NCBI GenBank assembly: GCA_977862235.1
Contig: OZ374560.1
Coordinates: forward strand, 2,790,001 to 2,854,000
Reading direction: 5' to 3'
Source of the DNA: Dudresnaya verticillata
Lineage: Eukaryota
Length of the DNA stretch: 64,000 bases
The translations under genes and the position numbers were made by a program. Of this stretch, positions 8,050 to 44,499 are shown one piece after another (within the stretch, counting starts at the first letter, position 1; each line of letters starts with the position of its first letter). A model generated the notes under the pieces. It saw only the letters and a program-made list of their open reading frames with translations, was not told the origin of the DNA and did not search any database.

Positions 8050-8456
8050 CTGTGGGGGGCTGTTATCCCGCTGTGGCACACAGCGGGCACTGTAGTTGAC
8101 GCGGACAACGTTAGATGGCAGCCAGATCATCTGGTATGATAGCAAACCCGTCAGTCAAGATAGGACGCATGATTTGGCGCAATTATGCGACAATAATCGC
8201 GGGAAGCCGTTTGCACGCCAGCGCGGCGCGGACGAGGGCCGACGGCGGGTTCGAGCGGCTCCCGCCTTGACAGAAGGCCTATATAAACCTGCTCCACTCC
8301 AGTCGAGGGGTGGGGGCAACCAGCACGGTGCCCACCAGACTTGCCAGCGCCCGAGCGCCTCTTCCCAGATCCCTACAGTGCCAACCGGGCTCCGGTCGCC
8401 ACAGGGCACGCACGCGATCGCCGCGCCGCACAGTACCCATCAATAAAGGTCTCCTC
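8050..8456 (+). repeat. PPT-like tract and truncated 3' LTR of the chromovirus
   Basis: GGGGGG tract immediately before TGTTAT at 8061, TATATAAA near 8280 and AATAAA at 8442. The sequence switches into the duplicated block at 8457 with no terminal CA. Confidence 0.65.
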
Positions 8457-9129
8457 CTGGAAGATAGCGAATATTGTTACACAGGCGATTGAGCTGAACC
8501 AGGGGCATAACCAGCGCCTGAAAAGGTGACGGGTAATGACAGAAACGATAAACAAGCGCGTTGGACTTCTGCCAGAACACAATACAGGAAACGCTATTTC
8601 TCTACGGCGCGAGAGAGAGACCTTTCTCTAAGGCGTTAGAATACTTGTGAATATTTGTCATGTCGTTTCTATGCTTGTTTCAGGATGGGTAGTATTGATG
8701 AGAGCTCATCATCTCTAAAGAGACAAGTGCCACAGGAGGTGAAAGTACAATGTACCTCGTGGGTGTAGAAAAGATGTTTAAGACAAGAGCCCAACTTTTA
8801 TGCTGTATACTAAGTGTTGTGAATCGCAACTACTATTTTTGATAATCACAACTCGTATCAAATGAATCGCAACTACTAATTTTTGTTAACCACAACCCGT
8901 ATCAATAGAACAGAATGACATTTCGAGGAACGAAGAGGACCATGTAGGAGGAGACGGAAGCAGCGAGAGGTCCCAGGGTGAACGGTTACGTCTGCCACCC
9001 GTCGGAACGTACCAGCAAATTCATGAGCTCCGCTGCGGTTTGGTACATAGCCGCACACAGCCGCCACCCACACCTGATACACCCACTCACCGATCCATGC
9101 GTGCCGCCACTCGTCCCTTCGAGCTTCTA

Positions 9130-9793: not shown

Positions 9794-10447
9794 CTTCTCT
9801 GTGGCGGTGGTCGTGGGTGCTGGTTGATGTAAAAAGGTGGGTGCGAAGCGAGGTCGGTTCTTGTTCTTTAATAAAGGTCTCTCCTCCTCGGTTGAAAGTG
9901 GTACATACGGGCTGCAGCAAGGACGAGATTCGTGTTCCGTTTTGCTGTTTGTCGAAGGGGAGATCTTTTCGGAAGGCAGTACGGCCATTAACAATAATGG
10001 TTTAACGCGGAAACAATAACAAGAGTGTTTTGTAAGCGCGTTCAAGCCATTTTCTGACTCCGCCTGGGTTCTATGTATAGCCTGTACCTTGGTACAATCT
10101 CAAATGTTCAACAGCCAGCCTTGTAAATATGGACAGGACACCGAGCTGAGCTTCGATGTCAATAGACAAGGACGAAATAGAAATCAGACACACTACCGGT
10201 AGTAAAGCAAGCAACAACCCGGCAGTAATGGCACACACCCGCGACATTTTCAAGGCCTTGTTCTTCCACGTTCGCCATATTCAGTGTCTCTACAGGATCT
10301 GTACAGGAAGCACATGCCTAATTGCACTCGACTCGTTCTACCGGTCAGATCTTGGTCGTACACGTACCCGTCAGATCTTGGTCGTACAGGGATTTTATTA
10401 GTATTAACCTGCAAAGTCGCGAGAACGCGAGAACAAGTACAAAGATG

Positions 10448-10864
10448 TTAACTTGCAAACTCGCGAGAGAACTTTTCTGCTGCTCTTGTTGAAAACTGAG
10501 TATGGGTCTCTCCACGGACATCGTTCCGAATACCGATATATCCTGTGACTTTCGCAAGTGTCTCCATTACCTCCGTCACTGGAACCTTCTTCTGCCGTTC
10601 GTGGTCTAAAAGGTGATTATCTTCAAATGCACGCCGAAACCGTTCGTCATATGGAAGCTGCTTGTTCTTGCAGTCTTCCACCTGGAGTTGGTAGAAAAGC
10701 GGGAATAGCACAGGTGACTGTGGCCTCTGCTTTCGCTCGAGAAATTCTGGCAGCTCCAACATCGGCCACTTGCGAGCCACAAACGACGGCGAAAGAATGA
10801 AAGCGGCAGCCTTACTGCCGCGAATTGCCGCTCGAATTTGCTCTTCGTTTGTACGTTCCGAAAC
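10448..10864 (-). pseudogene. Orphan TIR C-terminus of a Sel1-ROCO-TIR gene (type of 49278-52892)
   Basis: ...RAAIRGSKAAAFILSPSFVARKWPMLELPEF...EKFSREFAS*, nearly identical to 49278-49694 and cut at 10864. Confidence 0.92.
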
Positions 10865-11200
10865 TAGTTTATAGAAACTGAGAGGAGACCTTTACTAAAG
10901 AACAAGAGAGAAGCCCCTTAAGGGGGCTTAGGATTCAGAGCTACCATAAAGAGGCGGAGGAGCAAGTTTGCGGCGGTTGACACTCACCGCGACGCATTGG
11001 AGAACTAAAGAGAGTAAACGAGTAGTGAGGCGAAGTTTCTCCGTAGACGGAGAGGTCCCGCGCTTGCTAGCAATGAAATTAGCAATACGTTGGGCGCCAA
11101 TTTCAGAGCCAGATCCAACTCGGCCATAGACATCTACAACCATAGGATGGAGAACCATATCCAAACTAGCGCATACGCGGCGGTAATGTAATGAGAGCAT
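10865..11200 (-). mobile_element. 3' stub of an RLE-type (CRE/R2-group-like) non-LTR retrotransposon
   Basis: HYRRVC...LHPMVVDVYGRVG...GAQRIANF...LVLQCVAVSVNRRKL*, followed by the hairpin AAGCCCCTTAAGGGGGCTT (10911-10929). Homologous to the other stubs and to 53762-54600. Confidence 0.7.
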
Positions 11201-11281
11201 TTGACACGTTTGCGAGCTGCAATGGCTTGGCAAGCAACGCGACCAGTTATAGAAACTGCCAAATATTGATCCTCCATAAAC

Positions 11282-11316
11282 TCTAGCTTCATGCTTTCGT
11301 AAAGTGACGTTTACCC
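11282..11316 (-). mobile_element. 35-bp micro-insertion with 11-bp target-site duplication
   Basis: Minus strand: GTTTATGGAGG [GGGTAAACGTCACTTTACGAAAGCATGAAGCTAGA] GTTTATGGAGG. Same core at 46706-46736. Confidence 0.8.
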
Positions 11317-11496
11317 CCTCCATAAACCCCGAGGGTATTGTTCGCAATGATCTGCGATCAGAAGCAAGCGCCAATATTTTGGCACTTTGGAGCTCGAAAA
11401 GCTTTGGCCAGAGAGAAAGAGGAAGCAAAAAAGGTATCTCGTGGCAGTCCAGGTAGCGATGTAACAGACAAGGAGGGGTGGCGGGACATAATTTAC

Positions 11497-14400
11497 TTAA
11501 GTATCCTCAATAGCCTCGAACAACATATGTGCAGCTCTCTTGGCGAACTCATTTTCCGATTCTCCTCTATCGTTCCGAGCACCAGTATATTTCGTCACCG
11601 CTGCAACTGTGTCCATTACCTTCGACTCTTTCCCGAACTCGCGTTCAAAGAAGCGATTCTCTTTAAACTCTCGCCAAAATCGGTCGTCGAACGGAAGCTG
11701 TTTGTTCTTACAATCTCTGTACTCGAGTTTGTAGAACAGCGGGAACAGCACAAGGCGCGGTGATCCTTGTTTGCGCTTGAGAAATTCTGAAAGCTCCAAC
11801 AGCGGCCACTTGCGAGAGACAAACGACGATGACAGGATGAAGACGGCAGCTTTGCTGCCCCGGACCGCTGCCCAGATCCGTTCATCAGTTGTTTGCGTGG
11901 AAACCCTCAGACTCTCTTCATCCAGAAAACAACGCAAGCCCTTCTCCATCAACGCACTTCGCAGCGGGTATGCAAGCGACTCCTTATCTGGCCCTGCGTG
12001 GCTGATAAATACATCGAAAGGTCTTGCAGCTAGTCGCACGTCAACAGGACGCGGACCTGAGCCCGCACTTGCTCCTTTGAGGATGTGCGGCTTCAATCGT
12101 TTGAAAGTCCAAAGCTGCTCGCAAACGCAAGTGCCTTCTGCTGGGTCCAGTGGCTGGCACTGCGTACTTGTTACCCAACTCCGACGGATACCCAACTGCA
12201 CGCTACTGGAACTTCCACACCCCCCGCGCAATTCCTTAGGGCAGTCGGTGATCAGATAGTCTTTCCAGCTTGCATTGGTCCCATGCAGTGGTCCCTTCAA
12301 AAAACTTTCCATGCCCCGCAAACACTGGTGCGCAACCTGCAGCGCCTCATCGGCATCCGCCCTTATAGTCCAGTCGATCCATCTCTTTTCTGGTATAAAG
12401 CGAACCACAACTCTGCATGCTCCCTCAAGGGTCAGGATGACGGCATCTTGACGAAGCTCGGGCGCTTTTGTCCGTTCTCTTCCAATGGTTCGGTGAAGGT
12501 ACGCGATCAGTGACCCTGTCAGACTTGGCGGAATGGTATCAACAAACTCTGTTCTTAAAATTATTTCACTCTCTCCCTCCTTTGTGTCACACGAGAACCC
12601 TTCCCAAACCTTTGGCAGCAGTGAAGGTATCCCGATTAGCTCGTTCTGTTCACCATCCGCTGCTTCCACAGCCTGAAGGCGCATGAGAATGTCAAATTGA
12701 CAAAGAATGCCAAGCATGACTTTTCGGACAGCCGATGGGTATTTACACCACAGTGCCTCCAGTCCTTCACGGGGTATCAACCCATTCCGATAACCGTCTG
12801 CTTCATGCTGTCCCAGAGTCTGTAAAGTCCTTTCAAACTCTTTCGCTTCTTCTTCACCCAGTCTTTCTCGCATAAACTCAGCCGGGCCCGTGACCTGCCG
12901 AATAAAGTCCAGAATAACTGTTGGATCTGGGAACACGAACCATCCCTCGCCCGTCTGCACTTCTACGATATGGCCCTGCTGACTCTGGAATTGGACGCAT
13001 TTCTCAACGTCGGCTTCTCTCTCCTCCTTGTCACTAGAGAATCCGGGAAGTCTGGCAGCATGGCTCTGAACTTCTGTCATTACCAGAAAGACTTTTTGGC
13101 TTTCAGTGGCGTGCGACAAAATGGCTTCCCTGAGGGCAGCCCACCGAACTGGAACCTCTTCCCTTCCGTCAAGAATGTCTTCACTTGCTTCCTTGATAAA
13201 CTTCTCCAGTTCCACAACGCCTGACCCGGCACGGTCTTGTTCAGCACTGCTGTTCTTGTTCTCGATGGCAACCCACCGACACTTGCATTTGTCGACATCA
13301 CCCTTCTCACGTACCCAGTCATTGTAGACAGCCCTTCCGAGATTCTTTCGCAGTTTTTGTCGCAGCTGCTGAAACAAGTCTTCAGGGCTTTCAACTTCTG
13401 CCTTCCTGGTTCCCACCAGGATCACCCAAACATTTTTCGGGATTTGCGAAGACGCATGTGCCATTTGCATCCAGTTGCATAGTTCTAACACTTCGTCCTC
13501 TTGGGTGACTTCTGACGCAAAACGTTTCAGATCTACCACGAAAACAAAAATGGAAGCGCGGCGGATGAAGATTGCGGGAACACTGAGGTACTCTGCCTGA
13601 CCCCCAAGGTCCCAGCATTGCACCAACGCAGCTCGATTATCCGCAGGAAATACGGCACTCATGAGCCCTTGCCGTGCTGCTTCCCAAATGGGAGACGCTT
13701 GGGAGTTTATAGACTGCGAAGCAGCAATACTGGGCGGAGCTGGTGGTTGTTGAGCAGTGGTATGGCTGCTTGCCAATGTGTCTCCACTCTGGGGAACGGT
13801 CCTCTTGGTCGGAGGAGCTCGCTTGAGCCAAGTGGGGAGTTTAAGGCGGAATCTTGCGGTGGATTTTTCACTCGGCCGCGATGATGCATCAGTTGCAGTT
13901 GGGAGAAACGCCGATCCAGCTCGAAAGGAGCCGGCATCGGATGCACTTGCTGTAGATGACGTTGGTCGTTCCGTTGGCGTGGGTACCTCTGGAATACGTG
14001 ACCGTTACATGAGGGCATGGAAGGCCTCGCTGTTGAAGGCGAGTTGGTCGACGATGTCATCGTCCAACTTGGGGCCGTCCGGGACGACAAGAGTGCGACT
14101 CAGCGACACAAAGTGTGTCGGCTGGTGGGTGGCAACGAAGGGCATGGAGCGCAGGCTCCTTACCGTGCTTGTCTTACCACGTGCCGCACCGCCGAGAACA
14201 AGAAGAAAGCACTGCCGTGGCTTTGCTGTGGCGGTCTTGAGGGTGTTTTCAACAAGTGTGCTAGTGTCACCGATGCGGTTGACAAGGTATTGCGACCGGC
14301 TGCCGAATAATCCAAGCTCAAGAGGCGTTACCTGTTGATGCGCTGCTTGTTGATGCAGTTGGGCTGCTGCGTGCTCATCGCGAGCAACACCGACATTTCC

Positions 14401-15183
14401 GCGGCCAAGCAATGTGGCGAGCTCATAGAGTGCGACGCGGGTGCGATGGAGTTCGATTGAGCGTTGGAAGAGGCTCTTCGCGCGCGGCGGATCGCGCGCG
14501 TCTCCGATATGATTGGACAAAAGCGCTTGGCCCAACCAAACCATATACATTGGGGCCCTCTCGTGACCGCTGTCGCAGGCGCGTTGGAGCAGTTCGACGC
14601 CGCGCGGAACGTCTCGCGGAACATCGATCTCGCCGCACAGCAGCAATTCGCCCAAATCGGCCATTGCGACGACATCTTCGCCCTCCGCGATGGCGCGCTC
14701 GTACAGCGCAGCGGCGCGCGGAGCGTCTTTGGCGACGCCGTCGCCGGTTGCGAGGAGATTGCCCAAATTGGCCATTGCGTTCACATCCGCAAACTCTGCA
14801 ACGGCTCGTTCGTACAGCGCTGCCGCGCGCTTTGTGTCTTTGACAAAATGGCGCCATCCGATATGGAGACCCACTCCGAGATTGTACAGCGACACCCCGC
14901 GCGGATCTCGCGCGTTGGTGCGCTCGACCAGCTCCGCGGCGCGGCGCTCGTCCTTGGGCACTCCCGCGGCACGTTCCTTTAGCAGCAGTGCAAGGCCATG
15001 CCGAGCTTCGTCATGGTTGCCCTCATGAATCGCTCACTCGAGCAAGGCGACGGCTTGCAAAGGTAGAACAGGCCCTCCATCTGAAGAGTCCCAGTACGCA
15101 AAGGCAAGTGCAACCATGTCGTCGACGTCGGCATTGTCGTCGATAGCTTGGCGAAGGGCACGGCGCTGCTGTGTGGCATCCAT
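11497..15183 (-). pseudogene. Sel1-repeat/ROC/COR/TIR protein, copy A; full length but with TGA (15034-15036) and TAA (14005-14007)
   Basis: One continuous frame from ATG 15183 (MDATQQRRALRQ). The stops align with CGA and TCA in the intact paralogs. Motifs: GGAARGKTS, WDLGGQ, FDVFISHAG, WPLLEL. Confidence 0.92.
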
Positions 15184-15269: not shown

Positions 15270-16230
15270 GCACGGCTCTATTTATGCAGCGATGAAAGTT
15301 GCGAGTGATTGTGTAATCAACCTGATTTAGATTAAGTTGCGAGTGGGACGGCGGGAGGTGTTGACAGTTGCAGCGCAGCGTGTGCGGCTGTGTGCCGCCC
15401 GACGGTGATGTGTTTGTCAGTTTTGATCGGATGTTGTAAAAGTCGAAAGGCGCGTTGTCACGTCAGAGCAGAGTGCACGTGTATTTGGCGCCTGCGCGGA
15501 TTGCCGCTCTGCGAGATGTTTCGGCCACGCACAAACGACGTCATCGCTACAGCCCTTACAACAGAGTCGCGAGCCATCCTTCATCGCATCGCGAGCTTCG
15601 TGCGGAACAACACCTGCTCACCGCGAGCCGACTCCGGCCGTGTCCAGCCATGCTTTGTTGTTGCCGTCCTGCACGCCAGCCCCGGTCTCCATCCTCGTCG
15701 AGCGCGCACAGCTGCGGCGCGATACACGCAATAGAACTTGCTCGATGCTCCTCTATTGTTGTTTGTTAAGGTGGTCGTACGGGGGGTGACGAGCGCACCG
15801 TCCCGAGGGCTGGGGCACTGGCCTACTGGCCTGTGCCACGGCTACGGAAGTCATCCAAAGGGCGGCGCATTGCCGGTTGTTGGCGGAGGCGGTTGTCGTG
15901 TGCCGCGCGACGTGCGATCTCCCATCTCTTTTTGGCACAACGCAGCCGCGGCTGCATATCGCGGATGTTGCAAAAGTCGGCAGGCGCGTTGCGTCGTTGC
16001 ATCAGAGCGCAGCCTGCGGTGCACGTGTATTTGGCGTTTGCAGCATCATTGTCCCACCGCGGTGCACCTCGCATGACAATGACGACAAACACTGACAAAC
16101 ACAGACTGGCTCTCAACGCGACTCTCTTTCTCTCGATGGAGAGCGCACTCGGCGATGCGTTGCCGCCGCCGACCGACCACGCAATGCGCGCGAGGTGTTG
16201 TTTCTTTATTGCTGTGATCACGTACTAAGC
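15270..16230 (-). promoter_or_regulatory. Conserved upstream region of the Sel1-ROCO-TIR family (also 28410-29190, 52985-53760, 61070-61290)
   Basis: CATAAATA about 100 bp upstream of each ATG (15279, 28415, 52988, 61075). Internally repeated blocks GATGTTGYAAAAGTCGRMAGGCGCGT and GTGCACGTGTATTTGGCG. Confidence 0.55.
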
Positions 16231-22046: not shown

Positions 22047-22431
22047 GACTACCGCGACAGACTGCTGGCCATCCGGTGGCATTTGGGTACCTTCCCCATC
22101 CTCCCTTCCTGCCCTACCAAACGTGCAACCCTTCGAACCCACACCCAAGCCCTCCATCTGCTCTCCAAGCCAGACGCCACCCCAGACGATCTACACACCA
22201 TTGCCAGTACGATCGCCGCCATCCGCACCCTGTGCTCTGCCGAGTTTCCCTCTCTGAACACGCCGCCATCCTCCCAATCATAGACACACCACCGCTGTCC
22301 TTTTTTCCTTCCCGGGGTACACTACAGTGACAGCCCTCTTCCACTGTAGCTGATCCTGGTGTGCCTGCACATGGGCCTTTAAGTCGCCCGAGCGTGACCA
22401 CCTAAAACAACCATTAAAAGTTTACCATCAC
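22047..22431 (+). mobile_element. 5'-truncated LINE-like 3' end (385 bp) inserted at CAC
   Basis: Absent from the paralogous sites (about 18975 and 31110). Encodes DRLLAIRWHLGTFPI...ALHLLSKP...IAAIRTLC then a stop, followed by the tail GTGCCTGCACATGGGCCTTTAAGTCGCCCG...ATTAAAAGTTTACCATCAC. Confidence 0.7.
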
Positions 22432-25400
22432 TTCTGCTCCCTCAACGCTACCACCCCCGCGCACCCACAATCCCTCACTACATGCAGTGCACCCATGTCA
22501 CGTCACAGCCTACTCCAACACCCGTCCAAATGTGACCCACATCCCCACCGCGCCAAAGCCTACCACTACCGCAAACAGATTTCAATACCATAAGTTCCTC
22601 AAACTGCATCATGAGCAAATTATAGCGCAGCAAGTTCGCAGGCAGCTACAAACCTCAGTTTGAATCATCTCGTAAAGCTTATTCTCAAACTTGCGGGATT
22701 GCCACTGATGGGGTTCTGCATCCGAGCACAACTGAGCGCACAATTGAGCAAGCCAACGATATCGAAGTGCAAACGGAATGGATCCCATATCAGAACTGCA
22801 TCGTAGTGCGATATCGGACTTCCGCTTGCTCCGCTGTGCAACAAAGCAAACGTCACCAGCAACCTGCCCACCGACGCCTGCGTTTTCTGCGTCTCGCAGC
22901 AACATCGGCAAGTTGAGGAACAGTACAACCGGTGGTACGAAATCTCATCACTCATTTTGCGTCGGGAAGGACGGACCCACCGAGCCCAAGAATACACACG
23001 GTGCTACTGCCGGCTTCGCTGCCAATATGTCCGGACTTTGTCCTGTTCCAGCAATCCCTTTTCCGCAAATCCGCACGCCTCCCCAGTCGTAAGACTCGGT
23101 TACCCCGGTCTCCAGCTTCATCTACAGCCCTGTGCCGCAGCTGCCGGCAGTGTCGACTAGCGCCTGCGTCTTCGCTCGCTCGATCGTGATGGTCCACAAA
23201 TCGACAAGCGACGCTTCCGTATATAGCCTATCAGGCTGTGAACGATACACAGGCGGAGCAGTTAGTGAGATTGGTTGATGCCCCGCCGCTTAGCCATTAG
23301 TAGAACAAACGGTCAGGGCGAGAGAAGCGGCACCGTCGGTAGCGACGGTGAGGTAGCACCGCTCCGCAGATGTAGGTGTTGTCAGTAGCCAGTACCCGCA
23401 GGTGGTATCGCTTTCGAGCACCCGCGGCCTTAAGAGTTCGGTAGAGGAGGGTCATAACATGTCTGCAAAATGTGGCAAACTCCGGTTCTTGAGCTGTCGG
23501 ACCCTGGTAACGCGGTTGAAGGATTTTTGCTCGGGCTCGATAGTGGCAAGGTCGCTTTCCTCTCCCCTCTGGGAGCTTACCGTCTGGTCGGGTCGCGCTG
23601 CCTTTACTACAGACAGTCAGTACAATACAGTACTTTGATAATCGGTTAGCGGATGCGTAGCCTACTGTATGCACCAGACTGTACGCATATGCGCATGGTC
23701 ACTCCGCATACGGCAGACAACAGTCCGACTAGCACGAAACGGTACTGCATCCGGAAGCACAGTCAGGTCTATCGATGGTGTAATGGCGGCGGATGCGGCA
23801 AAGGTAAGGCGGCGGATGCAGGTGAAGGTAATGGTGTCGGATACCGTTCTCCATTCCTCCACCAAACAGCACGCCAAACGTCGCTCGCTCTAGCCGTCCA
23901 AAACTATCATCGCGGCAGGGTTCTACAAAAACCTCTCAGCATTCTTTCTACCGCAGCATTCTTACGTAGTTTTCACCCATACAGCGATGAGCCGTAACAA
24001 AGTGTACATGTCTTCGCGGACCGTTAGCTCCACCTGCGTTCGCCATTTCTCGCCATACTGGCTTCCCGAAGAACAAAACTGAATTTTCCCAGAACTAAGC
24101 AGTTCCATAGACCAGGAGCTGGATGTGTAAGCCGAGTAAGTAATGTCGTGAAGTATTTTAGTCATTTCGGATGCTGCCAACTGGTAACGCGACTCACCGA
24201 CTTTCCACCCAACTCGTATGTACTCAACTCGTTTGCAGTCAACTCGTTTGAAACGAAATGAGAGCCTTTCCTCATGCAATAATTTTTGAAGACTATCCAC
24301 AACCTCCATACCAAACCCGACAAATGGAGGAAAACTGTTGCAAAATCCGGTAGCGGACCAAAATCGTATTAGCACAACCACGTCGTACCACCCAAGGCTT
24401 CACTCCTCTCTCTCATTCGACGTTCAAACATTCCCACCCATCCACAAACCAAACGAGGCCAAAAATAACCTTTTTGTTTGGCCTCTCTAGAGAGGTTCTG
24501 TTGCTTTAATGCCAGCTTTGCTAAGGTCGGCAACGCGGAAACAATAATAGGGCTTATGGGGTAGCAGTCACAGGATATAATTGCGAATGTAAGGGTTTCT
24601 ATCCGTTTTAGGAGCATTAAAATTGCAAGTTATTGCTCGCACAAATGCAATATGATTCGAAGAAAGCGTTCTATCTCAAGTCGATAGGAGAACGATAGGA
24701 GAACGTACTCCAAGAGTGCTACAGTAGATCACATACGAAGGGAGTCGTTATAGGTCCGTACAGTGGGAAGAGGCCGCGTTCATCCTTCAGTCTCTGAGGG
24801 CAGCACGAGGTCAAGGCAGCGTGTACAAATGCGTACGTGGATATCTTATGTCAGTACAGGACGTTGCCTGTGGGTTCTTGGGCGTCGAAGAGACCTTAAT
24901 GGAGATCATAGGTTTCATTTCCAACCTATCCCAAAACGCATAGATTCTACTAAATGCAATTCTCTACTCCACAAAGCCATCGCTCTGGACGACGAATGAC
25001 TACTAAAGATAATCAGGAATATGTTGCATCAATGCTCTCCCCTTCGGCAATATATACAGTATTGCAACATAACAGCCATCACGTCCCAATAACATCTGCA
25101 ACATATGCGTACGTCGTGCAATAAGTTTGTGCAATGCCGTTGATGTTGTTTTACGCGCCTACAGAACGATATATATGATCTCGCTCGCGCACAAAGCCGC
25201 ACATATGCGTATCGTATACTGCATTTAACACTAGGGCTTCCAACACTTCTACTCGACCCAATAGGTACAGTATTGCAATATGCAATGTCACTGCAACAAC
25301 AATTGCAATTGCAACTAGTTTCCCGACAGCCCTGGCACTAACGGCAATGCGGTTCACTCCTTCCCGTGCACTCTAAACTTTGTTGAGTAAACTTTATCAT

Positions 25401-26619
25401 CACTCCTTCCCATCGCCCAGCGAATGCATCGCATACCATTTCCACGTCTTCTGCTTGCCATACACGAACCCCGCCGCGTACGGCGCACTCATTCTGATTA
25501 CGTTGCGCAAGGAAAGCAGTACTGCTGCATCGTCCGAATCACGCTTATCCCCTTCCTACCATTTCAAGAGTACTGCAGCACCTGTGCTCGGAGCGTCACA
25601 GCATAGACAGCCTCTGGACTAACAAGCGTTAGCGTCCCTCTTGAGCTTCTGCATAGAAACGTTCTCTCTCTATGTGATCTGTACAGTCCCTGGACAAGCG
25701 TCTCTACGTCCGCATTATCCCGCCGGGGCATTGCATTGTACTTTTTCTACAGTACTCTGCAACCACCCGCGCAAAGCTATCCGAGTACGCCTACACGAGC
25801 GCGCTGGTCTCCCTCCTACGCCACCTGACTCGCGAGTCGGGCACCCCCTGCCCCGGTTCACATTTATCCCCAAGGATCACAATCACAATCCGCAATAAGA
25901 CAGGCATCCTTTTAATCGCAAGATTTAGAGTAAGTCCCTTAAGGGGACTTAATACGCACTGTTGTTGCTAACGCGGCGGTCAACAAGCTTGCGCCTGTTA
26001 ACAGAAACCGCGACGCACTGAAATACTAAAGAGGTAAGGCGAGTGAGGGAGACCTTCTCGCTAGATGGGGCCGTTCCGTCCTCTGAAGCACCCGCATTGC
26101 TCCGAGGCCAAACTCCGCCTCATCGAGTACTCCATCACACTCGTTCTGCCACTTCTTCACCGTTCGCCTCCTGTCGCAGACTTGAAACCAAGGAAATCAC
26201 GAAAACAATAGATCCGCCATCCATGCCGTTTCAGCAGATGCCCTAATGTACGTATACACCGCTTGTTGTACCACAGGCTCTTTACGAGTCTATAGCAACC
26301 ATAACTGCATTGCTGTATGGTAGACGTTTCTACCGCTTTGCTCAGGAACGGTGACCCACGCACTTTCAGCAAGACCGTGAGAGGCCGCCGATAGATGTAT
26401 ACCTCCAACTTTTTCTTCGGATAGCCCCGTCGCCTACGATCTCAACCCCGTCGCCTACGATCTCAAGCGTTCAACAAACAGTCTTGTGTTCTGTAGATTG
26501 GAAAACGACAGCTCCTGTTTCCTTCCTCTCCCAGCACCCCTTCTTCACCTCTTTACACGACCTCTAGAAAAGTCCAATTGTAGGGCTTCTTTCGAAGCTC
26601 CAGAATGAAAAGCGTCTGT

Positions 26620-27410
26620 TTGCACTAGTATTCGAAGACCCCAGCGGGGATGTGATACCGGACGAGATGGTCTTGTACATGCGGGCGGTGTTCGGGATTA
26701 TGGATGCGTGCAGATGGAATGACGGGAAGCTGCTGGTGCACATCCACAAGAAGTGCGAGTCGCAGACCAAAAACACGCTAGAGTGTTTGGCAGCAGGGTG
26801 CGACGGGATGTGGAACTGCCTGTGCGTGGAGGGTGCGGCGATGGGGCACGCGTGCTCGACGATGGTGTTGATGAACTTTGTATGGCTGGGGAATTAGAAG
26901 GTGCTGTCCAAATACCGGTGCCAGGAGTTTCGGAAGACGGCGATCGAGGTTACGCGTCCGACGACACTGAAGGACCCGCACCCCAAGCAGTACGTGTACG
27001 GAGAGCGGGTGTTGTAACTTTTGTTTGACTCGGAAGGAATGGGGGGGGGGTGGGGGGGGGGGGGGGGGGGGGGGGGGATGGTTCAACATGGCAGAGCTTT
27101 TCGGGGAGCGCGAGACGAACCGGATGACGACGCTGGCGTCGCCGAACACGGTCGTGAACAGGCCCAAGTACTTGTTTGATGACGACGTGCAGTTTACAGA
27201 GGCAATGGTGCATACGGTGCTTTCGCAGATGCTAGTAGACCTGAATGTGGGACGGAAGAGTGCCAGAGCGCGATGGGACTGGCGGTGTTGTTCGACCGGT
27301 GCTGGGGGCAGATGACGGGGAAGATGAGCAAGGCGATTGCTCGCGTGCAGGTGCACGATGCTCACCACCAGAGGGTGATTGCGGACGTCCGCAAGGCGTG
27401 GGACTTTTGG
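26620..27410 (+). pseudogene. Decayed fragment of an uncharacterised protein with HMGL-like/DRE-TIM HxH motif
   Basis: VFEDPSGD...KLLVHIHKK...LECLAAGCDGMWNCLCVEGAAMGHACST...PHPKQYVYGER, with stops and a G-run at 27040-27077. The fold call rests on recalled motif similarity only. Confidence 0.5.
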
Positions 27411-27773
27411 GTCGCCAAAGACGCTCCGCGTGTACACCGCGCGCAGCTGCGCTGTACGAACGAGCCGTTGCAGAGTTTGCGGATGTGAAGGCAATGGTCA
27501 ATTTGGGCAATCTCGTCGCAAACGGCGACGGCGTCGCCAAAGACGCTCCGCGCGCCGCTGCGCTGTACGAATGCGCCATCGCGGAGGGCGAAGATGTCGG
27601 CGCAATGTACGATTTGGGCGAATTGCTGCTGAGCGGCGAAATCGATGTTCCGCGAGACGTTCCGCGCGGCGTCCGACTGCTCCAACGCGCCTGCGACAGC
27701 GGTCTCGAGAGCGCCCCAATTCATATGGTTCGGTTGGGCCAAGCGCTTTTGTCCAATCATATCGGAGACGCGC
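27411..27773 (+). pseudogene. Inverted internal Sel1-repeat fragment of the ROCO-TIR family
   Basis: VAKDAPR...AAALYERAVAEFADVKAMVNLGNLVANGDGVAKDAPRAAALYECAIAEGE...LLSNHIGDA on the plus strand. Confidence 0.9.
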
Positions 27774-28321
27774 ACCGTCTCCGAGGAGAATGCCCAAATT
27801 GACCATTGCCTTTCACATCCGCAAACTCTGCAGCGGCTCGTTCGTACAGCGCAGCGGCGCGCGGGACGTCTTTGGCGACGCCGTCACCGTTTCTGAGGAG
27901 AAAGCCCAAATTAATCATTGCGTCCACATTTGCAATCTCTGCAACGGCTCGTTCGTACAGCGCTGCCGCGCGCTTTGTGTCTTTGACAAAATGGCGCCAT
28001 CCGTCAGAGAGACGCAGTCCGAGATTGTACAGCGACACCCCGCGCGGAGCTCGCGCGTTGGTGCGCTCGACCAGCTCCACGGCTCGGCGCTCGTCCTTGG
28101 GCACTCCAGCGGCTCCTTCCTTTAAGAACAGTGCAAAGCCGCGCCGCGCTTGGTCATGTGCGCCATCATCAATCGCTTGCTCGAGCAAGGCGACGGCTTG
28201 CAAAGGTAGAACAGGCCCTCCATCTGAAGCGTCCCAGTACGCAAAGGCAAGTGCAACCATGTTGTGGACGTCGGCATTGTCGTCGATAGCTTGGCGAAGG
28301 GTACGGCGGTGTGGCATCCAT
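27774..28321 (-). pseudogene. 5' part of Sel1-ROCO-TIR copy D (Sel1 repeats only)
   Basis: Family ATG at 28321, then a 5-nt deletion; LRQAIDDNADVHNMVALAFAYW...AMINLGFLLRNGDGVAKD; 1-nt insertion near 27812; ends at an inversion junction. Confidence 0.9.
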
Positions 28322-29191
28322 GTCGGCAGGAGCGGGTGGTCAAGCGGGTGGAGACGGTTGGAGATGGGATGGTTGGGGTGTGTGTCGGTGGAGCGAGTGC
28401 TCCAACCGCACGGCTATTTATGCAGCGATGAAAGTTGCCAGTGGGCCCGCCGCAACGCCTCTTGCAGCGGGTTGCAGAATGTGCGGCTGTATGCCGGCGG
28501 TACTGTTTTGCGCGGGTGTTGTGAAAGTCGGCAGGCGAGTTGCCAGGTCAGAAGAGGCGCGCGGTGGTGCACGTGAATTTGGCGCTTGCGCAGATTGGCG
28601 CCCTGCGAGATCTTTCAGCAACGCACAAACGTCACCATCGCTGCAGCCCTTACGACAGAGTCGCGAGCCATCCTTGATCGCATCACGAGCTTCCTGTGGA
28701 AAAAGACGTGCTCCCCGCGAACCAACTCTGGCCGTGTCAAGCCATGCTTTCCTGCCGCCACCCTGCACGCCAGTGTGGTCTCCATTCTCGTCGAGCACGC
28801 ACAGCTGCGGCGCCATACACGTAATGGAACTTGCTTGATGCTCCTCTATTGTAGTCGTTAAGGTGGTCGTACGGGGGTGACGAGGGTACCGTTCGGAGCG
28901 CTGACACCCTGGCCTAGTGGCCTGTACTGTACCGCGGCTACGGAAGTCATCCAACGGGCGGCGCATTGCCGGTTGTTGGCGGAGGCGTTTGTTGCGTGCC
29001 GCGCGACGTGCGATTTCCATCTCTTTTTTTGGCACAACGCAGCCGCGGCTGCATATCGCGGATGTTGCAAAAGTCGGCAGGCGCGTTGCGTCGTTGCATC
29101 AGAGCACAGCGCGGTGCACCTGTATTTGGCGTTTGCAGTATCATCTAAAGCGAGTGCACCTCGCACGACAATGACGACAAACACGGCTCTC

Positions 29192-32700: not shown

Positions 32701-33444
32701 GTCTATATAACTATCCGTGGTCTCACGGAAGTCAGAGCAAGTTCTTCCTTCCCACCCGCCCACCCGCAGAATCTTCTTCACTCCACAAGTCCTAGCCTTT
32801 ACTTCCCGACAAGTACAAGTACATGTCTTATTCTGACGCACCTTTTAGTTAAAAATGGCATCGGTTAGTCCCATGAAGCTATCACAATAAAGCTTTCACT
32901 TCTTTTCAGATGCAGAAAAGGTTCCATTCTTTATGGCAAGGAAAATTGCAATGCGCTGCACGCCAAGTTCAAACTCTACTTTGTAAGGAGGGATTTCACC
33001 TTATCATAGAGATCACATCACCCGAGTCACCCTACGGGGTGTCTAAAATTTGGGTTATGACGCAGACGGCGATTACGGCGATTAGTAGATACAGCGGTAT
33101 ACGGTAGGACTCTGTGAGATGGGGAGCTTTACTGAAGGACGACAAAAATACGGGTAGTCAATGAGTGTTCACAGTGTTTCTCAGAAAGCGGGGTGCACCC
33201 TTCCTCTCAGCAAGGAAGTGGACGAAAGTTTGAGCTTCAGTCTCGAAACCAGTACTCATACGACAGTAAATGTCTAGAACCATTGAATGAAGGTCGAAAC
33301 CGTGAAGACCGCTAATCAAAGGAGAGTAGCCTGTTTTCGCACACTCACGTGTCGCGATTGTCTGAGCACTTACTACATACTTTCTGGGCCAGTACCGCTA
33401 GAAGGTAAATGGGGCCCACGACAGAAAAATCGAAACCTTGGGGT

Positions 33445-33792
33445 CGAGCGGAGAAACAGCATTCAACGTCTCCTTTGCTACACCGCACACCGATACTCGG
33501 CATTACCGCGGTTTATGTGCCAACAACAACATTGATCTCCATCCTATGATGGTGGACATCTACGGTGCCGTTGGCCCATGCTCTGATAGTGGTGCCCAGC
33601 GTGTTGCCACTTTCTTGGTCATGAAGACGGGAACATCCCCTACTGCAGAAAAATCCTCCCTGCTTACTCGTCTCATCATTGTCGCTCGCTTTGTTATTTA
33701 TTAACTGCGTGTCAGTGGCTGTTAACTGGCGTAAGCTGGTGGACCATTGCTTAGAGCCCAGTACTTCTAAGTACCTTCTAGGGGGTTCTAGA
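33445..33792 (+). mobile_element. Older 3' stub of the RLE-type retrotransposon
   Basis: AFNVSFATPH...RHYRGLCANNNIDLHPMMVDIYG...GAQRVATF, with a degenerate terminal hairpin near 33768-33792. Confidence 0.65.
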
Positions 33793-34245
33793 TTTCTGAT
33801 GAATACAGTGAAGACTACTAGAATTATCTAATGCAGGAATGAGACAGCTGCCTACAGTAAATACTAAATACTAATCCTTCGTAGCTCTAGTCTTCCAGAA
33901 AGTGCTCTAGTACTTCAACTACCTATAAGAAGGTCCCTGTGCTGTAATTTAGCGTTGGTTACAATCGCTTAAGCTCTTTGGAGGTCCAAACACTGTACAC
34001 GAGGAGGGCGTAGGACTGGTTATTGCCGATAACGGCATGATAGGGAATCAGAGGAGCTGAGGTTCTCACTCTCTTACAAACGAGTGAGAAGGAAATTCTT
34101 TTCAGTGAGGTTGCTGATATCTTACTTTCTGGCGAGGAAGGTGACAAACGTATTTGGATAATGATGGAGCAGACGTTACGCAATGTCGAACAGAAATCCC
34201 ATACGGGGCCTTATTCAGAAGGAGAGGCAAAAATGTGGCTTAGTC

Positions 34246-35282
34246 CTAATTCGCATGCTTCACACCAGCGGCCACAATATACAGAGGGGCCACGGGAATT
34301 TTGCGTCTCAAAGAACGAGAGACCCCTCGCATGGCATCCGTATCACTCAAACTCTCCGGGAAGAGGCCATCCACCTCGAAACGCTTCCGCATTGCCTGTT
34401 CGAGATCATACGCATTCCGTTTTGCAACGTCGAGGCTGTCGTGGATTCTTTGGTCCAGCGCCTTGTTCAGAGTGAAGCCTAGGATACCCACGTAATCGGC
34501 CTCTTGACGCACTTCACCGGCGAGACTGACGTTGATGTCTAGATGCCGCGATCTGGATTTCGTAGAAGCGGCCCTGATTTCGTAGATTGAAAGCGGGGTC
34601 TTGATACTAACCCGATTCTTCTTTTTGTTCATGGATATAGATAGGGCACTAGATTGGGTGTTTTCTTCTACATTCTTACCTCCGATGGAAACTCGCACTA
34701 TCAAAGCACTGTTAGCCCCATGTTTCTCTTCGCCAATGGAGATCTTTACCTGCTGCCCATCGCCGGTCGTGAGACCGAAGAGATCAAAGAATGTGCGGCG
34801 AATCCGAGCACCCCTGTTCGTAGTGTGCATACGAGCGACCATGGTCTCCCCACCTGCCTGTCCAAACAGTGCGTAGGTTTTGCCATGTTCCCCGTGGAAG
34901 TCGAAGTGGGAGCCGTCGAAGCCGGACATGTGTGGGTCACCCCTTCCGGAGGCGGCGCAGACGGCCGGGCCCCCCCCCCCCCGCACTTGTAGCCACAGGC
35001 GTACTTGATCATGCCCGCCACAAAAACTTGATCAACCGAAGTGGAGCCTGTGCATGATTGGACGCAGCCGTGAGAGCAGTTATCCATGAGACATCGCTGT
35101 GCCGCGGTCACGAGATTGCATGCCGTGGTCGCCTCCGGCATTGTATCGAAGAAATCCACCAGGGAGGGGATGTCCTCTACCTGACAAGAGCATGTATTTC
35201 CCACGGTGGGGGCAGGCGCCAACAGGAGAGTTGTGAAGGAAAGTAGGATGAAGGCCCGGAGGATGGAGGAGTTTTTGTTCAT
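34246..35282 (-). CDS. Secreted Cys-rich + VWD/root-cap-like domain protein, frameshifted in a C13 run (34970-34982)
   Basis: Signal peptide MNKNSSILRAFILLSFTTLLLAPAPTVG, Cys-rich domain and Gly linker, then in another frame GDPHMSGFDGSHFDFHGEHGKTYALF. TATAAA on the minus strand at 35369-35374. Confidence 0.75.
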
Positions 35283-38200
35283 GGCTGGGGTTGAGATGGT
35301 GCTCGGCTCTGCGGTAATGGTCTTGGGTACCGGTGGGCGAGCGAGGTACGTTGGAAGAGTTTGTTGTCTTTATAGAAGTTTGACCTATCTCATATGCAAC
35401 CTGTAGCAAGCAATAAATTCGTGTTTAAGGTCACTTGCCGGCAGTGCGATATGACTATTTGTCAGGGGGGATTGTTCCCACGGTTCTGATATTTGCGAAA
35501 GGCCGTATTGTCACTCGCTGTGCCACTGCCTCCTCACGAGAAAGAACATGTTCAGCATACCCTTGGTTGACACAACTCTTTCCAAAGTGCCGCGTCGGAG
35601 CCAGGTCAAGTCACAGTATCCGCATTACTAGCACCAGGATATTTATTGTAACGTGGTTCTTTAACTGTAGGGTCACATACGCTTAGCATTACTGGGTTGT
35701 TTAAAGAGATGGTTGAGTGATCTTGATCATAATTGAATCGTTCCGATAGCTGAATAAAGTACATTCCCATTCTCGATAGACAGTTTAACTATGCAATTGC
35801 ATATTGTAGTATAGGCTGTGGTATACAATCATACAATATACAATTGCTTATACATTATTTTCTGTGCAGTGCTCATATCCGCCCAGAGCAATAAACTTAG
35901 CGCTTCCTCCATTCAATGTCTTGATTTACTTGCTGTTGTGCGTTACAATGCTTTCACGCCAGGGGGAAATGCCACGGAGAGCGTTTCTGCTAGAGAAACC
36001 GGGCGTTCCGGAGCTCATTGGCAAATGGAAGGCAGATTTTGCGACCAAAACACACACACCCAGCAATGGGTGTGCTCCCCAACCCCGCGTTGCAATGCAA
36101 TGCAAGGCAAAGCAGCTCTGTCCTCAATAAGTCTTCTTGGAAGGCGCTAAAGCCTTTAAAATGGCATCGAAAGTCCGGCCTTCTGTAGCAATTGCAGCCT
36201 GTTCTTCATTGCTGATTGGCATCCCAAGAAGCCACGCTTGGATATGACCGTTTTCAACACTATGGCACTGATAATGTGATGTTTTCTCTATTTGTTATTT
36301 ATGAGCACAACCTTGATTGTTGTTTATAGTGGTCCTACGCCGGCAGCTTAGGCCCAAGTGCAGGCGCACTTGAGTGTCCACGGGACTCATGGACTTATGT
36401 TTTGTTACGTGCTATGGGACGTTGGTGCTATCTGTAACGAGACCACTGTTAAGCGGTGGGGGACGAGGGGGTGGACGGTCTTGCGCGCACAGTCGGCGGA
36501 TTTTGTCAATGGCGGTGGAGAGAGCGGTAAGGTCGAAGGTGTTGATCGCGGGGCGTGACAATAGTGGAAGGACTACTGTACGGCTTGTGCACTCAGTGCT
36601 GATCATTTGATTGCACAGGAGGTTGGAATTGGAAAGGTTCAATAATCGCAAGCTTACGGTCGCGGTGGTTAAAGAGTCGGAACGCGGGACTTGGAACGAT
36701 GCATCTTGGACCGGAGGGGCTACAAAACGCTCTATTCTCGCGATCCAACACTACAGATGCCGCTCCGCCACAAAACCGTACATATGCTTATCGTATACTG
36801 CACTTAGCAATAGGGCTTCCAATATTACTACTCAACCCAATAGGTATTGCAATACGCATTGTCACTGCAATAAGAATTGCAATTAGCTACAGTATCAACA
36901 ACTCATTGAGCTATTGCTACTGTGTATTGCAAATACTAGCCCGACAGCTCCGCGCACATCTCGACCGCACCGACGCCCGCCGCTCCCACTCCGTCCTGCA
37001 CCACCTCGGCCTCCACCTCGGGGCTATCAACTATGTATCAACTCCGTCTAGAAAGCAATCCAACCCTTCACTGCCTGAAAGATCACGATAATGCGAAGTA
37101 ATATTCTTTGATCCAGGTCTAATCGACTTCGTAGGCGAAGTAGGCATTACTTGTTACACTTGTCCTCAGATATTAATGTGCAAGTTGGCGAGTCACAAGA
37201 GGGCTATCATACGCGACGAATCTTCAAGCGCACCAAATGCGCCGGGGAACATAAGTTGCATGTTCCGAAGACAGAACAGGCGCAATGGCTATGGCGAGGA
37301 GCACGCCACAAGACACAAAAAATCATATTGGGCGCGAGGGACCTCTGTCCTTGTTTGAAGATCCTTTGCAGCCTGCTCCCTGAGTTAGAAGAGCACATTT
37401 GAAGTACAGATCGCATGAAATCGACGCTCTGTACAGTACACAGTCTGTACACAGTCTGCACTGTCAGTCTCTTTCTTCTAAACTTTTAAAGTCAGAAACC
37501 CCGAGGTGAGAGTTGTTCTTCATAGAGAAAATAGAATTGTAATAAGTGTAGCAGAATCAAACTGCACACTTTTTATCTGATGCAGCATCACCAACAGCAC
37601 CACATGAGTACCGAACGCCTCCATTTCATTTGGTGCCGTAGCTTTATTACTACAGTACTACGGCACGTAACCAGCCTCGTTCATAGGATGGGACCGTCCG
37701 CATGTGCCATGGAGATGCACAGGCACAACCACGGCTTCTTTTGAGCCGATTCCCAACCACTGAAAAAGGTGACTACTGTAGATAAAGAACTAAATCCCGT
37801 AATACGATAATAAAGAACATGGAGAAATGTGGAGAACGATCTATTCTCACAGGGACGGGAGGTCGGGAAACAAAATCTGCGAGAAGCCTAGCGACGGGTG
37901 CAGGGGTCCATTCGTTTCTTCGGAAGGCGTTCTGCAGGCGGAAGCTTGTGTTTTCGAGTTTGAAGCATTTGTGCTCGTCACAGGATTGTCGACAAGTTCG
38001 ACTGTAGCGCACTAAGGCGGGAGTATGTAAACGAGGGCATTCTGGGCTTGAAGGTTTCGCCCCGATGCGACGGACCAGATGCTTTCAAGAGGGCAGGGTG
38101 CTGAGCCGTTTCCCGACGAGAATTTGGAACTCAGAAAAGCCAGCTTTCGGGACCAGTGGTCCAACCAACATTGCACATCCTCGCTCGATAATAATAAAAC

Positions 38201-39628
38201 CTCTTCTTCCTGCCTCGAAATACAATCCAGTCAATAACCAACTTCCGTCAAGTGAACAGCGTTCCAGCTTTTGCCAGCCGTTTTTATTTGATCGTAACCT
38301 TCGTTATTGTATCTCCTGTGCACTGTTTTGCACAGTTGCAATGCAGAAAAGCCCGCTCTAACAGAAGAAGAACCATAGGCTCCTCACGAAGAAGATATTT
38401 CACCGTCTTATTTCACTTGCACGTTCATACTAGTATGAAAATAACCCCATTGCGTGGACTGGACGATACAAACAAGCCTACTGTACATCTATCTACCGAA
38501 TTCTCGCACACTGAATATTTATGTGGCGATCAATGTCGCACTTTGAAGTCGCTCGCTTGACAAGCAGACCCGATCCCGGTCTACATATCTGGTTGATAAC
38601 CTGAAACTCCTTGGTTTTCTCTCTATTTGCCATATTAATACGGTATTATCCCGCTCCGTTTGCTGCCAGAATATTATCGGAAAACGGACGTGGATGCGCT
38701 TGATTACGAGAGCTATCACATATGGCTTGGGAAGATCTGCCCGGTGGCAGGGTTTTCCTTTCAGAAACGCGCAGTGCGCCCGAGCTGGCGATAGGCACCC
38801 GCCGAGACTGCGGGCGCCCACTGGACCGTAGCTCGTCGGGCTGTCCCGGGAACAGCAGCTCGTCCTAGGATGCGGATTTGTGCTGTAGAAAATCGAACGT
38901 ATAGCATCCTCAGCTAAAATACAGTGGGAAGGATGATTCAGCGAACGCAGTACAGAAAAAAGGAGAGGCGGGAGAGAAAACAAAAGCAATATGGTGGTGC
39001 AGTGTGCGTTGGAGATTGAAAGCACTGCGTCTCCGCGAACAAGTTGTTCGACGAAAAGAGGGAGATGGAGTCAAAGCGGTGAGCAAAGTTGTGAAAGTTG
39101 ACGTGAGAAGGTCTTCGTTCGGCGGCAGGGAACAGAGTGGGGCGCGGCGATCCGGGTCGCCAACAATTTGACTGTCAGGCGTCGCGAGAACTGAAACACA
39201 GAAGACGGCAACCGCCACGCCCAGTGCGTTGCACCGATACGAAACTAACGTTACTACTGATAAGTCCGCTGCAGTGCGGCAATGAGGTGTTTGAGGTAGA
39301 GTAAACCTCCTCAAAAGAGATACGATACCTGTGGCTGCATCATTTCATTCCACATACCATGGTGCAAATAATCAGGTGATAACATTGCGTGACGTCCCTT
39401 CCACTGTAATAAACTCACATCTTCGATTCAGTGCTCTGAAAGCGAACGACGTCGTTGGAGCAGCCCATTGGAGCTTATCTTTGCCGACTGCAATGACGCT
39501 TCGATCGGACCTTGTTTGCCGTGCCGAGACACAGAAACGTACGGTGTGAGAGGGAAGCTCCCAAAGGAACATTATATTCAACAGGAGTAGCCGGCCCCAG
39601 TGTCTTGAGTGGCTTCAAAACACTATAC

Positions 39629-39652
39629 CTCTCTCTCTCTCTCTCTCTCTCT
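39629..39652. repeat. (CT)12 microsatellite
   Basis: Read directly from the sequence. Confidence 0.95.
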
Positions 39653-39688
39653 CCGTAATTGTAACTATTGCATTACGGGAGTGATGCA

Positions 39689-39796
39689 ATGCACAGTGGT
39701 TTCTCCGGGAGAGGAACTTTCTCTGCACATTTAGTTCTCCGCCGAAAAAGTAAATGTGCAGAGAGATTTCCTCTCCCGGAGAAACTACATGTGCAT
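39689..39796. repeat. 108-bp near-perfect inverted repeat (MITE-like or small-RNA hairpin)
   Basis: ATGCACAGTGGTTTCTCCGGGAGAGGAA..TCTCTGCACATTTA pairs with TAAATGTGCAGAGA..TTCCTCTCCCGGAGAAACTACATGTGCAT. Confidence 0.85.
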
Positions 39797-40247
39797 CATA
39801 GCACTGTCCTAAAGTGACGGCCAGCGATGGCTCATAGAAAAGCTGTTCACGCCATGCGACGTGAGCTGCACTAATATTGAGTCCCTGACAGTATCAAATT
39901 GCATTGTGCAGGCAAATTGCGTAGGCGTATTATTGTATAATTGTGTAATATAGCGTATACAGTGGTTTCATGTTATATTCCTCGCAAATTGAATTGCTTG
40001 CAGATAAATTCTGACATACTCAAAAGTATGTTACGTAAGCTATCAACTATAACATCACCATGCTCTGCTACACCTGCCGCTGCCATCCCCGATACCTCTT
40101 TGCAGGCGGCCCCCCGGCACTGCTTAAAGCTGGCATGCATCGTCTGCCGCTATCGATCAACAACTCAGTCTCCAGTTTACTCGCCTCGAAAAGCAAAGCA
40201 CTTCCGTTAAACATCTCCCTCCTCAATTATTACTCCTCGTTCCCAAA

Positions 40248-40687
40248 ATGTTCCGATTCAAGATCCTAGTCCTGCTTCTGCTTGCTCTCGCAGCCCTATC
40301 ACTCGCACTCGCCCTCCCCGAGAGCATGAATGAGAAAATCCCCGGTGCCGTGTCCTTCAGTTCTCTTGTTGTGAAATATAAGGGTGGAGATGTAGTATCT
40401 CCTATAGATGTAACGAGGGCAGAGTCCTGCCAAAGACAAAGTGCGCACAAGCGCGTGTGGAGTCCCAGTAGATGACGTTGTTTACTGAGTTGTTCTTGAT
40501 TACTCCAGGTGTGTTCTCACTACGTGTTGGAGCGCTTAAATACACACCAGTCGACTTCCAATACTCTGAAACCAGCTCTCCAGATTATCGCACTATCGTT
40601 CGTTCCTACTTTCTCTGCAATTCAAGTAAACTACAGGGTGACACTGTAGAACGAGGCAATACAATTGCAGGTGTCGGTGAGTTCTGA
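40248..40687 (+). pseudogene. Probable broken gene for a small secreted protein
   Basis: Strong signal peptide MFRFKILVLLLLALAALSLALALPE; ORF ends at 75 aa with an overlapping downstream ORF. No family recognised. Confidence 0.35.
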
Positions 40688-42601: not shown

Positions 42602-43727
42602 ATGGACTCTTCAGAGTTTATCCCACCTCTCAAACCTAGCTCTAACCCATTTTTCAGGACAATCTCCGTTGTCCCCCCCCCCCTTCGTCCCGTTATGGCT
42701 CTCTGCCATCGAGATCTTCTTCACTTGTATCAAGGCTGTGCTTTTGGGAAGAAAATCCCCGCACAGAATCGCCGTTACAATTGCCTTTTTCATCGAATCC
42801 CTCATAGGCATAGTCTTGTCAGTCTTGCTGCTGACAAATTCTCTTCGATATGCGCAGGTAGCCGTTGAAGGATTTCATTACTTGCTTACTATTTTAGCAG
42901 CCATAGCAATCGCAACTGAGCTTTTCTGCGTTGTTATAGAAGTGTCTGTTATCCGTCGAGCATTTCTTCTGCGCTACAATGCTGAAGCCCGGGAAGAAAT
43001 TCAAGTTAACATCGGCGAGAAGTGGCGGACAGTTCTGAAGTGGGTCGCACTCATAGTGGGCACGGCCACACTTCTAACAGGGCTACTGTCGATCGATGTA
43101 TTCAACGACGAATTCGGGTTCAGCGGCTGGAGCTACACATGGACCAATCCGTTCAGTTATGCCACTCTAGCTTTGATTGCAATTCAAATAGGAACTCTCA
43201 TCGTGCTGAGTTTGGTATTAGAGGGGTCGTACTGGATTCGAATATGTTTCATTGTGAGCTTTCTGGTGATTAACATAGTAGGAGTGATCATCTTCCTACT
43301 CGCAGGAGGACAGTTGATAGGAGCAAGTGGGATTTTCGAGTTTAATCGTCGGCATCAACTTCTATCTTTCTTCGTGTTGAGCCTCGCCAGCGCCATCACT
43401 GCTTTGTCGGCATTTAGACTTTCCGGGCCCAGAGAAACTGGAGAGGCAACGAATGAATCTACAAAGGTGCTGGAGACGTTTTTCTTTGCTGCCGTGCCAC
43501 CAATTATTCTTCTTACGCTGGTGGGGAGTGAGGGGTTTGCAACAGCGGCCGATGTGGACGGAACTGGTTTTCAACTGATACTATACGAGTCTGATGTACT
43601 TCTTGTACTGATTACGATTCTGCCGCAAATGGCGGTGTTCGTGGTGCCCCTACTATTTGACCATGCCACTCTTGCTTTCCGATTGCGGAAGAATAGACGC
43701 AGTGCGTGCACCACGGGCGGAGGGTGA
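42602..43727 (+). CDS. Multi-pass membrane protein of unknown function; 5' end uncertain
   Basis: 352-codon open frame (42669-43727) with about nine hydrophobic segments. The nearest upstream ATG (42602) is out of frame by one base across a C11 run (42673-42683); alternatively CTAAC...TTTTCAG (to 42657) is an intron acceptor. Confidence 0.65.
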
Positions 43728-44496: not shown

Positions 44497-44499
44497 AAG

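Follow-up and report, generated by a model that had tools for sequence, protein, structure and literature searches.

The window, by which we mean the whole 64-kb stretch of Dudresnaya verticillata DNA analysed here, harbors two copies of one short sequence, 35 and 31 nt long, each inserted between perfect target-site duplications. Both inserts are real and retroposed. They are probably the extreme 3' ends of a subfamily of CRE-like LINEs with a restriction-like endonuclease (RLE), made by target-primed reverse transcription that ended after 31-35 nt. We favor this LINE-end reading because the inserts are identical, their duplications are perfect, one end is fixed and C-rich, and the layout from TAAAG to that end is that of the RLE-type tails in the window. 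Nowhere in the window does a copy match the insert in full and extend beyond it, and the parent copy would accordingly lie outside the window.

Two inserts and their target-site duplications

An identical 31-mer occurs exactly twice in the window with up to three mismatches allowed: at 11286-11316 on the minus strand and at 46706-46736 on the plus strand. Matches to it were obtained in 0 of 100 dinucleotide-shuffled windows, and the next-best ungapped match in the window agrees at 19 of 31 positions, leaving no third, diverged copy. At site 1 the complete insert spans 35 nt (11282-11316, putative RNA sense on the plus strand) and reads, on its C-rich strand, as 18 nt, TAAA and 13 nt; its TAAAG (11300-11304, plus strand) is, by its spacing and by likeness to the red-algal UAAA signal, a candidate poly(A) or 3'-end signal of the donor. 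It is bracketed by 11-bp duplications at 11271-11281, on the variable side where 5' truncation would have occurred, and at 11317-11327, beginning with CC, at the fixed end, the putative 3' end at which priming took place (both given on the plus strand). At site 2 the insert is 31 nt long (46706-46736, putative RNA sense on the minus strand), matches the first fully over its own length, and is bracketed by 6-bp duplications at 46700-46705 (fixed end) and 46737-46742 (variable end, overlapping the donor sequence by 1 nt), likewise given on the plus strand. The duplications are thus perfect in both members of a sample of two. For comparison, direct repeats no shorter than 6 bp flank a 29-37-nt segment at 0.47% of window positions, and an 11-bp repeat surrounds 35 nt at 3 of 63,920.

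On one strand both fixed junctions show five G, and two of these are duplicated target; the chance of GG from the target at both is 0.39%. As this GG is common to the two junctions, it may be assigned to either the target or the donor. The flanks of site 1 and site 2 are unrelated. The initial annotation, which had described the same 31-35 bp with duplications at two unrelated sites, starting alike after a target GG and differing at the far end, is borne out in each of these respects. It had also pointed to a small hairpin in the core: this is present, but it is no stronger than in shuffled sequences (z from -0.97 to +1.07 over five folds; not significant). Poly(A) is absent from both inserts.

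A Helitron 3' end, suggested by a hairpin, 12 nt and CTAG on the G strand, was tried as a candidate and dropped: site 2 lacks the CTAG, and the inserts have duplications, whereas Helitrons, to our knowledge, make none.

Settings of the two sites

Site 2 lies in the 3' remnant of a second LINE-like family (46640-47030, minus strand; homologues at 22060-22431 and 36310-36400 and in a SINE tail at 47693-47768). Insert 2 interrupts the tail of this remnant, and the homologous stretches at 22359-22431, 36310-36370 and 47693-47768 lack it. The earlier statement that removing this copy restores a conserved LINE tail is upheld, with the qualification that the gap is clean in the gapped alignment to the 36k copy and less so in the other two homologues. 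The SINE tail belongs to a 283-bp insertion at 47480-47762 (plus strand) that is missing from a paralogue at 8891; its head has A- and B-box-like motifs, recognised by eye, and its tail is common to the second LINE family (22359-22431, 36310-36370, 46640-46705), making it a probable tRNA-headed SINE.

Site 1 has no empty-site paralogue in the window. It lies just outside a 366-bp, 5'-truncated RLE-type (CRE-like) LINE copy (10881-11246, minus strand), in the orientation opposite to that copy. A placement of site 1 within the RLE ORF was considered and rejected: homology ends at 11241, and the 10.9k copy has its own 12-bp duplication (10869-10880, 11247-11258). A contig of run X1 matches this copy over 192 nt (10885-11076) and departs from it at 10885, which provides an independent mark of the copy's 3' end. 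Across 10870-11570 this is all that the run, a DNA run with a share of 0.07, covers, no RNA run being listed; against 33000-49200 it yielded 14 short, diverged matching pieces, none of them at site 2. The run therefore does not truly represent the host, and its lack of matches at the inserts carries no weight.

The window at large is rich in repeats and includes Ty3/gypsy ORFs as well as Sel1-Roc-TIR genes in tandem. For one of its RT ORFs, Agarophyton chilense supplies the best named relatives (3 of the 120 matches listed), which would make a florideophyte red alga the probable host. The Sel1 repeat-Roc-TIR genes are intronless, lie on the minus strand (11497-15033, 49278-53111 and 57020-61198, with fragments at 10448-10891 and 27757-28413) and vary in their number of 111-bp Sel1 units. 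The top Atlas match is a eukaryotic Roc-COR cluster (0.90), a word-index protein search recovered no close relative, and a literature search for such genes found nothing; the family is likely to be immune-receptor-like. Other features of the window are: a 108-bp near-perfect inverted repeat at 39689-39796, which is MITE-like and whose Rfam miRNA matches fall far below the cut-offs; a 37-nt G run at 27041-27077 within a decayed Sel1 gene region; and a hydrophobic 386-aa ORF at 42567-43727 (plus strand) with no Pfam match.

An RLE-type LINE family with a conserved tail

A profile built from four RLE-type remnants of the window retrieved 47 relatives. The longer ones carry a CCHC knuckle, an RH motif, two acidic residues (D..D) and a K..Y helix, as does the window copy at 53.9-54.5k (53860-54530); the definitions of the knuckle and the RLE motifs, and the layout of RLE-bearing LINEs of the R2/CRE group, follow PMC5678591. 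Pfam gave no match. When seven of the relatives were used as tblastn queries, about ten RLE-type C-terminal remnants were detected across the window, all of them 5'-truncated. The name CRE-like reflects what we take to be a resemblance, confined to C-terminal features. A word-index protein search with a short RLE fragment gave no match, a viral locus search found no relative, a metagenome locus search yielded one locus out of 224 pattern matches, and a literature search found no paper on this RLE LINE family.

The 3' ends of these elements follow a common plan: stop codon, a hairpin (stem 7-8 bp, loop 4-5 nt), a spacer of 16-18 nt, TAAA(G) and a pyrimidine-rich end of 10-13 nt. The remnants at 33.1k and 33.7k are without a clear hairpin or TAAA, and one distant metagenome relative has the same tail layout as the RLE-type ends of the window. 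In the 10.9k copy the hairpin occupies 10911-10929 (minus strand), 16 nt upstream of TAAA. Another copy, at 63586-63650 (minus strand), has hairpin, spacer and a TAAAG at 63601, and is the closest match in the window to the fixed end of the insert. Among six tails, which form a small and related set, two-sided changes occur at five of the seven stem pairs, a pattern that is no more than suggestive. In the red alga C. merolae, UAAA serves as poly(A) signal and lies at a mean of 17 nt before the cleavage site (PMC6413133, PMC8831791).

Comparison of the insert with LINE tails

With TAAAG followed by 12 nt on its C-rich strand, the insert matches the spacing of the RLE-type tails; in 35-mers such spacing arises by chance, on either strand, in 3.0% of cases for TAAA and 1.0% for TAAAG. 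When aligned, the longer insert starts exactly at the expected end of the 3' arm of the hairpin. We scanned insert suffixes of nine lengths by local alignment against all 50-nt tiles of the window, on both strands and with self excluded. The LINE end at 63601 ranks first for five of the nine (16, 18, 22, 24 and 26 nt), second at 20 nt, third at 28, sixth at 31 and eleventh at 35; in the opposite orientation the best rank of any tail of the family is 36th. The likeness between the insert and the 63601 tail is limited to the last 17 nt, where 14 positions match, and fades upstream.

A TAAA-anchored matrix was derived from seven tails, one per subfamily, with the anchor excluded and the 26k and 30k tails omitted as near copies of the 18k one. 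The insert scores 1.5 bits on it, which is less than five of the seven leave-one-out scores of true tails (leave-one-out ranks 0, 1, 2, 3, 4, 14 and 33 of 314) and is reached or beaten by five of 314 other TAAA sites, three of these being tail stubs. A standing of 6/314 is by itself too little for a call, but the tails of the second LINE family, along with the SINE tail, rank at 90-121. Pairwise tests of the insert against single tails gave p values of 0.02-0.75. Since the comparisons were picked after the sequences had been seen, we regard the resemblance as after-the-fact evidence of moderate weight, short of identity.

A TAAA near the end is equally expected of any Pol II transcript. A source that we consider unlikely is some other polyadenylated RNA, be it a SINE, a cellular mRNA or the RNA of another LINE clade, whose 3' end the LINE machinery copied in trans and truncated similarly. 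It is consistent with this source that red-algal poly(A) sites in general have TAAA 13 nt before the end (PMC6413133, PMC8831791), that the second LINE family and the SINE of the window also end in TAAA and about 10 nt, and that a 34-nt duplication-flanked segment at 25366 resembles the end of that second family. The insert, however, scores like RLE-type tails, whereas the tails of the second family reach -12 to -14 bits on the RLE matrix, and pairwise scores of the insert against them are not significant. As for a cellular mRNA, retrocopies of mRNAs usually carry poly(A), and neither insert does.

Searches for a donor and other possible sources

Matches to the insert in other collections were few and short, and none pointed to a donor. 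Exact scans with a 27-mer of it in metagenome contigs, and with a 24-mer and one 17-mer in viral contigs, gave 0 matches; in viral contigs a 16-mer gave 18 and an 18-mer three, none running beyond the seed; in prokaryote genomes a 19-mer gave 0 and a 20-mer one, with no extension past the seed. BLAST of the insert returned no plasmid match and seven weak phage matches (E 0.1-5), and a literal literature search with four 16-letter strings from it found no occurrence in the papers covered. At the insert site Rfam gave no family match and ARAGORN no tRNA.

The last two results bear on a small non-coding RNA as the source, which the initial annotation had raised as a small structural RNA. On such a reading the G-rich strand would be the RNA, GGG its natural 5' end, and internal priming at nt 31-35 would have produced a tailless retrocopy. 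This has a precedent in the tailless retropseudogenes of therian mammals, which like the inserts are short, devoid of poly(A) and flanked by target duplications, and which are 5'-complete with clustered end positions (PMC5322556); clustering of this kind would explain the two similar insert lengths. Those retropseudogenes, however, are 3'-truncated copies of known RNAs made at A-rich priming sites (PMC5322556), unlike the inserts, whose fixed end resembles a processed 3' end and which match no RNA family. Moreover, the variable end at site 2 has 1 nt of target complementarity, as against the 2-18 nt given in PMC5322556; the TAAA of the G strand scores -9.2 bits on the matrix; and the fold is not significant. 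With Rfam empty and the hairpin no stronger than chance, a small RNA is left unsupported, and we judge it improbable.

A further candidate of the initial annotation was a telomerase product. At staggered breaks with GG ends, telomerase may have added an unconventional repeat of great length or copied past the boundary of its template, a course of events that seems very improbable to us; just as doubtful is the corresponding view of the sequence, in which a 33-37-mer would be a single telomere repeat of unusual length, or else the template and read-through of a red-algal telomerase RNA. Telomerase would account for the GG, and interstitial telomeric insertions of mammals do offer parallels, in that the G-rich strand is added after in-register bases at a break and duplications occasionally accompany it (PMC2246262). 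Red-algal telomeres are also reported to vary, some repeats starting with long G runs (PMC9812998), and PMC8287931 identified no telomerase RNA from these algae. On the other side, each insert is a single, non-repeated unit: neither has a second or partial repeat unit, and there is no tandem array in the 64-kb window. The florideophyte repeat found in print is the 10-mer TTTTTAGGGG (bioRxiv 10.1101/2025.02.11.637652), and duplications accompany 6 of 130 insertions in rodents and 4 of 25 in primates (PMC2246262), compared with both of the two here. Telomerase would also leave unexplained why the C strand has a poly(A) signal at LINE-end spacing and why a LINE end matches the insert, and the candidate has gained no positive support. 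Were it true, the inserts would disclose a telomerase RNA sequence from a red seaweed for the first time, and only then would they be of wide importance.

The insert length is within the size of the 'tail' of Penelope-like elements, a 30-40-bp extension of the pseudo-LTR, and these elements, whose reported hosts include red algae, make duplications of a similar size, 8-10 bp (PMC3846280, PMC8557442). A solo tail of this kind, inserted alone, is nonetheless a most unlikely source. The tail is always joined to a pseudo-LTR in the accounts given of it in PMC3846280 and PMC8557442, which as far as they go describe no tail-only insertions, whereas the flanks of both inserts are unrelated target sequence with no pseudo-LTR beside them. 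Neither a Penelope-type RT nor a GIY-YIG domain was found in the 33 ORFs scanned with Pfam, a set composed of the longer ORFs.

The closest likeness is to 5'-truncated copies of RLE-bearing non-LTR elements of the R2/CRE group, with which the inserts share a fixed 3' end, a variable 5' end, a target duplication, short 3' microhomology and the lack of poly(A). They differ from such copies in being only 31-35 nt long and in having, at two sites, no target specificity beyond GG. Among the candidates originally listed, an extremely truncated, tail-less retroelement is thus the one preferred, given the LINE-tail layout and the match to the LINE end at 63601.

Further stubs in the window

Two other short segments have the same character. 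A 28-nt tail stub of the 10.9k family (9860-9887) is flanked by 6-bp duplications (9854-9893, plus strand) and agrees with the 10.9k tail in 24 of 26 aligned columns; a second copy of it at about 48724-48763 arose via segmental duplication. A 15-nt tail-like stub (63724-63738) lies between perfect 10-bp duplications (63714-63748, minus strand) and causes a frameshift in the LINE remnant that hosts it. In each of the two stubs, the pyrimidine tail is prolonged by the opening bases of the 3' repeat, as CC does at the 31-35-nt inserts. The four stubs are truncated at 3, 12, 14 and 18 nt upstream of TAAA, at or before the base of the hairpin.

An unbiased scan for duplication-flanked TAAA segments revealed no excess when duplications of at least 6 bp were admitted (34, against 31-41 in six simulations), and an excess only for those of at least 10 bp (4, against 0-1 in six simulations); of these four segments, the one at 49284 is a tandem duplication and that at 25366 is without a clean empty site.

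Several further segments were observed. At 8430-8457, the edge of an LTR-like segment carries some 20 nt that match the tail of the 10.9k LINE; they have no recognised duplication and are probably another stub. The 34-nt segment at 25354-25411, between 12-bp repeats, has an end resembling the tail of the second LINE family; its paralogue at 56k displays a 40-bp gap and no clean empty site. At 15296-15345, upstream of a Sel1-Roc-TIR gene, a 26-nt filler lies between perfect 12-bp repeats; three paralogues have the empty site, and a minus-strand TAAA is 18 nt from one end. A 19-nt segment between 10-bp repeats is found at 437-475 within a Ty3/gypsy ORF.

A model for the inserts and its implications

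The initial annotation had proposed target-primed reverse transcription from an RNA with a C-rich fixed end; the geometry fits, and the interpretation is supported in part. On the LINE-end reading the steps might be as follows: processing would leave the LINE RNA with an end some 13 nt past its UAAA signal; this pyrimidine-rich end would pair, through its terminal C's, with 3'-GG at the first nick, a microhomology of 2 nt; the reverse transcriptase would copy 31-35 nt and then halt prematurely, perhaps on meeting the base of the conserved hairpin in the 3' UTR; and a second nick 6-11 bp away would give rise to the target duplication. With the hairpin 16-18 nt upstream of TAAA, its base would lie 31-35 nt from the RNA end. 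A pause of reverse transcription at the hairpin is compatible with the truncation data, and is put no more strongly here because the hairpin is retained in the remnant at 17.5k and other remnants run to hundreds of bases; the scatter of truncation points among the four stubs likewise lends no support to a sharp stop. The resulting stubs would be dead on arrival and devoid of function.

On the LINE-end reading the inserts have little significance in themselves, truncated LINE copies being an expected and ordinary by-product of element activity. Nevertheless, perfectly duplicated targets around stubs of 15-35 nt seem to be frequent, the 64 kb having received four or more such insertions; the stubs fall below the length cut-offs of repeat annotation and can shift reading frames. 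The conserved hairpin-TAAA tail furnishes a handle on an RLE LINE family, and if truncation points were to cluster at the hairpin genome-wide, they would constitute a natural read-out of a reverse-transcription pause.
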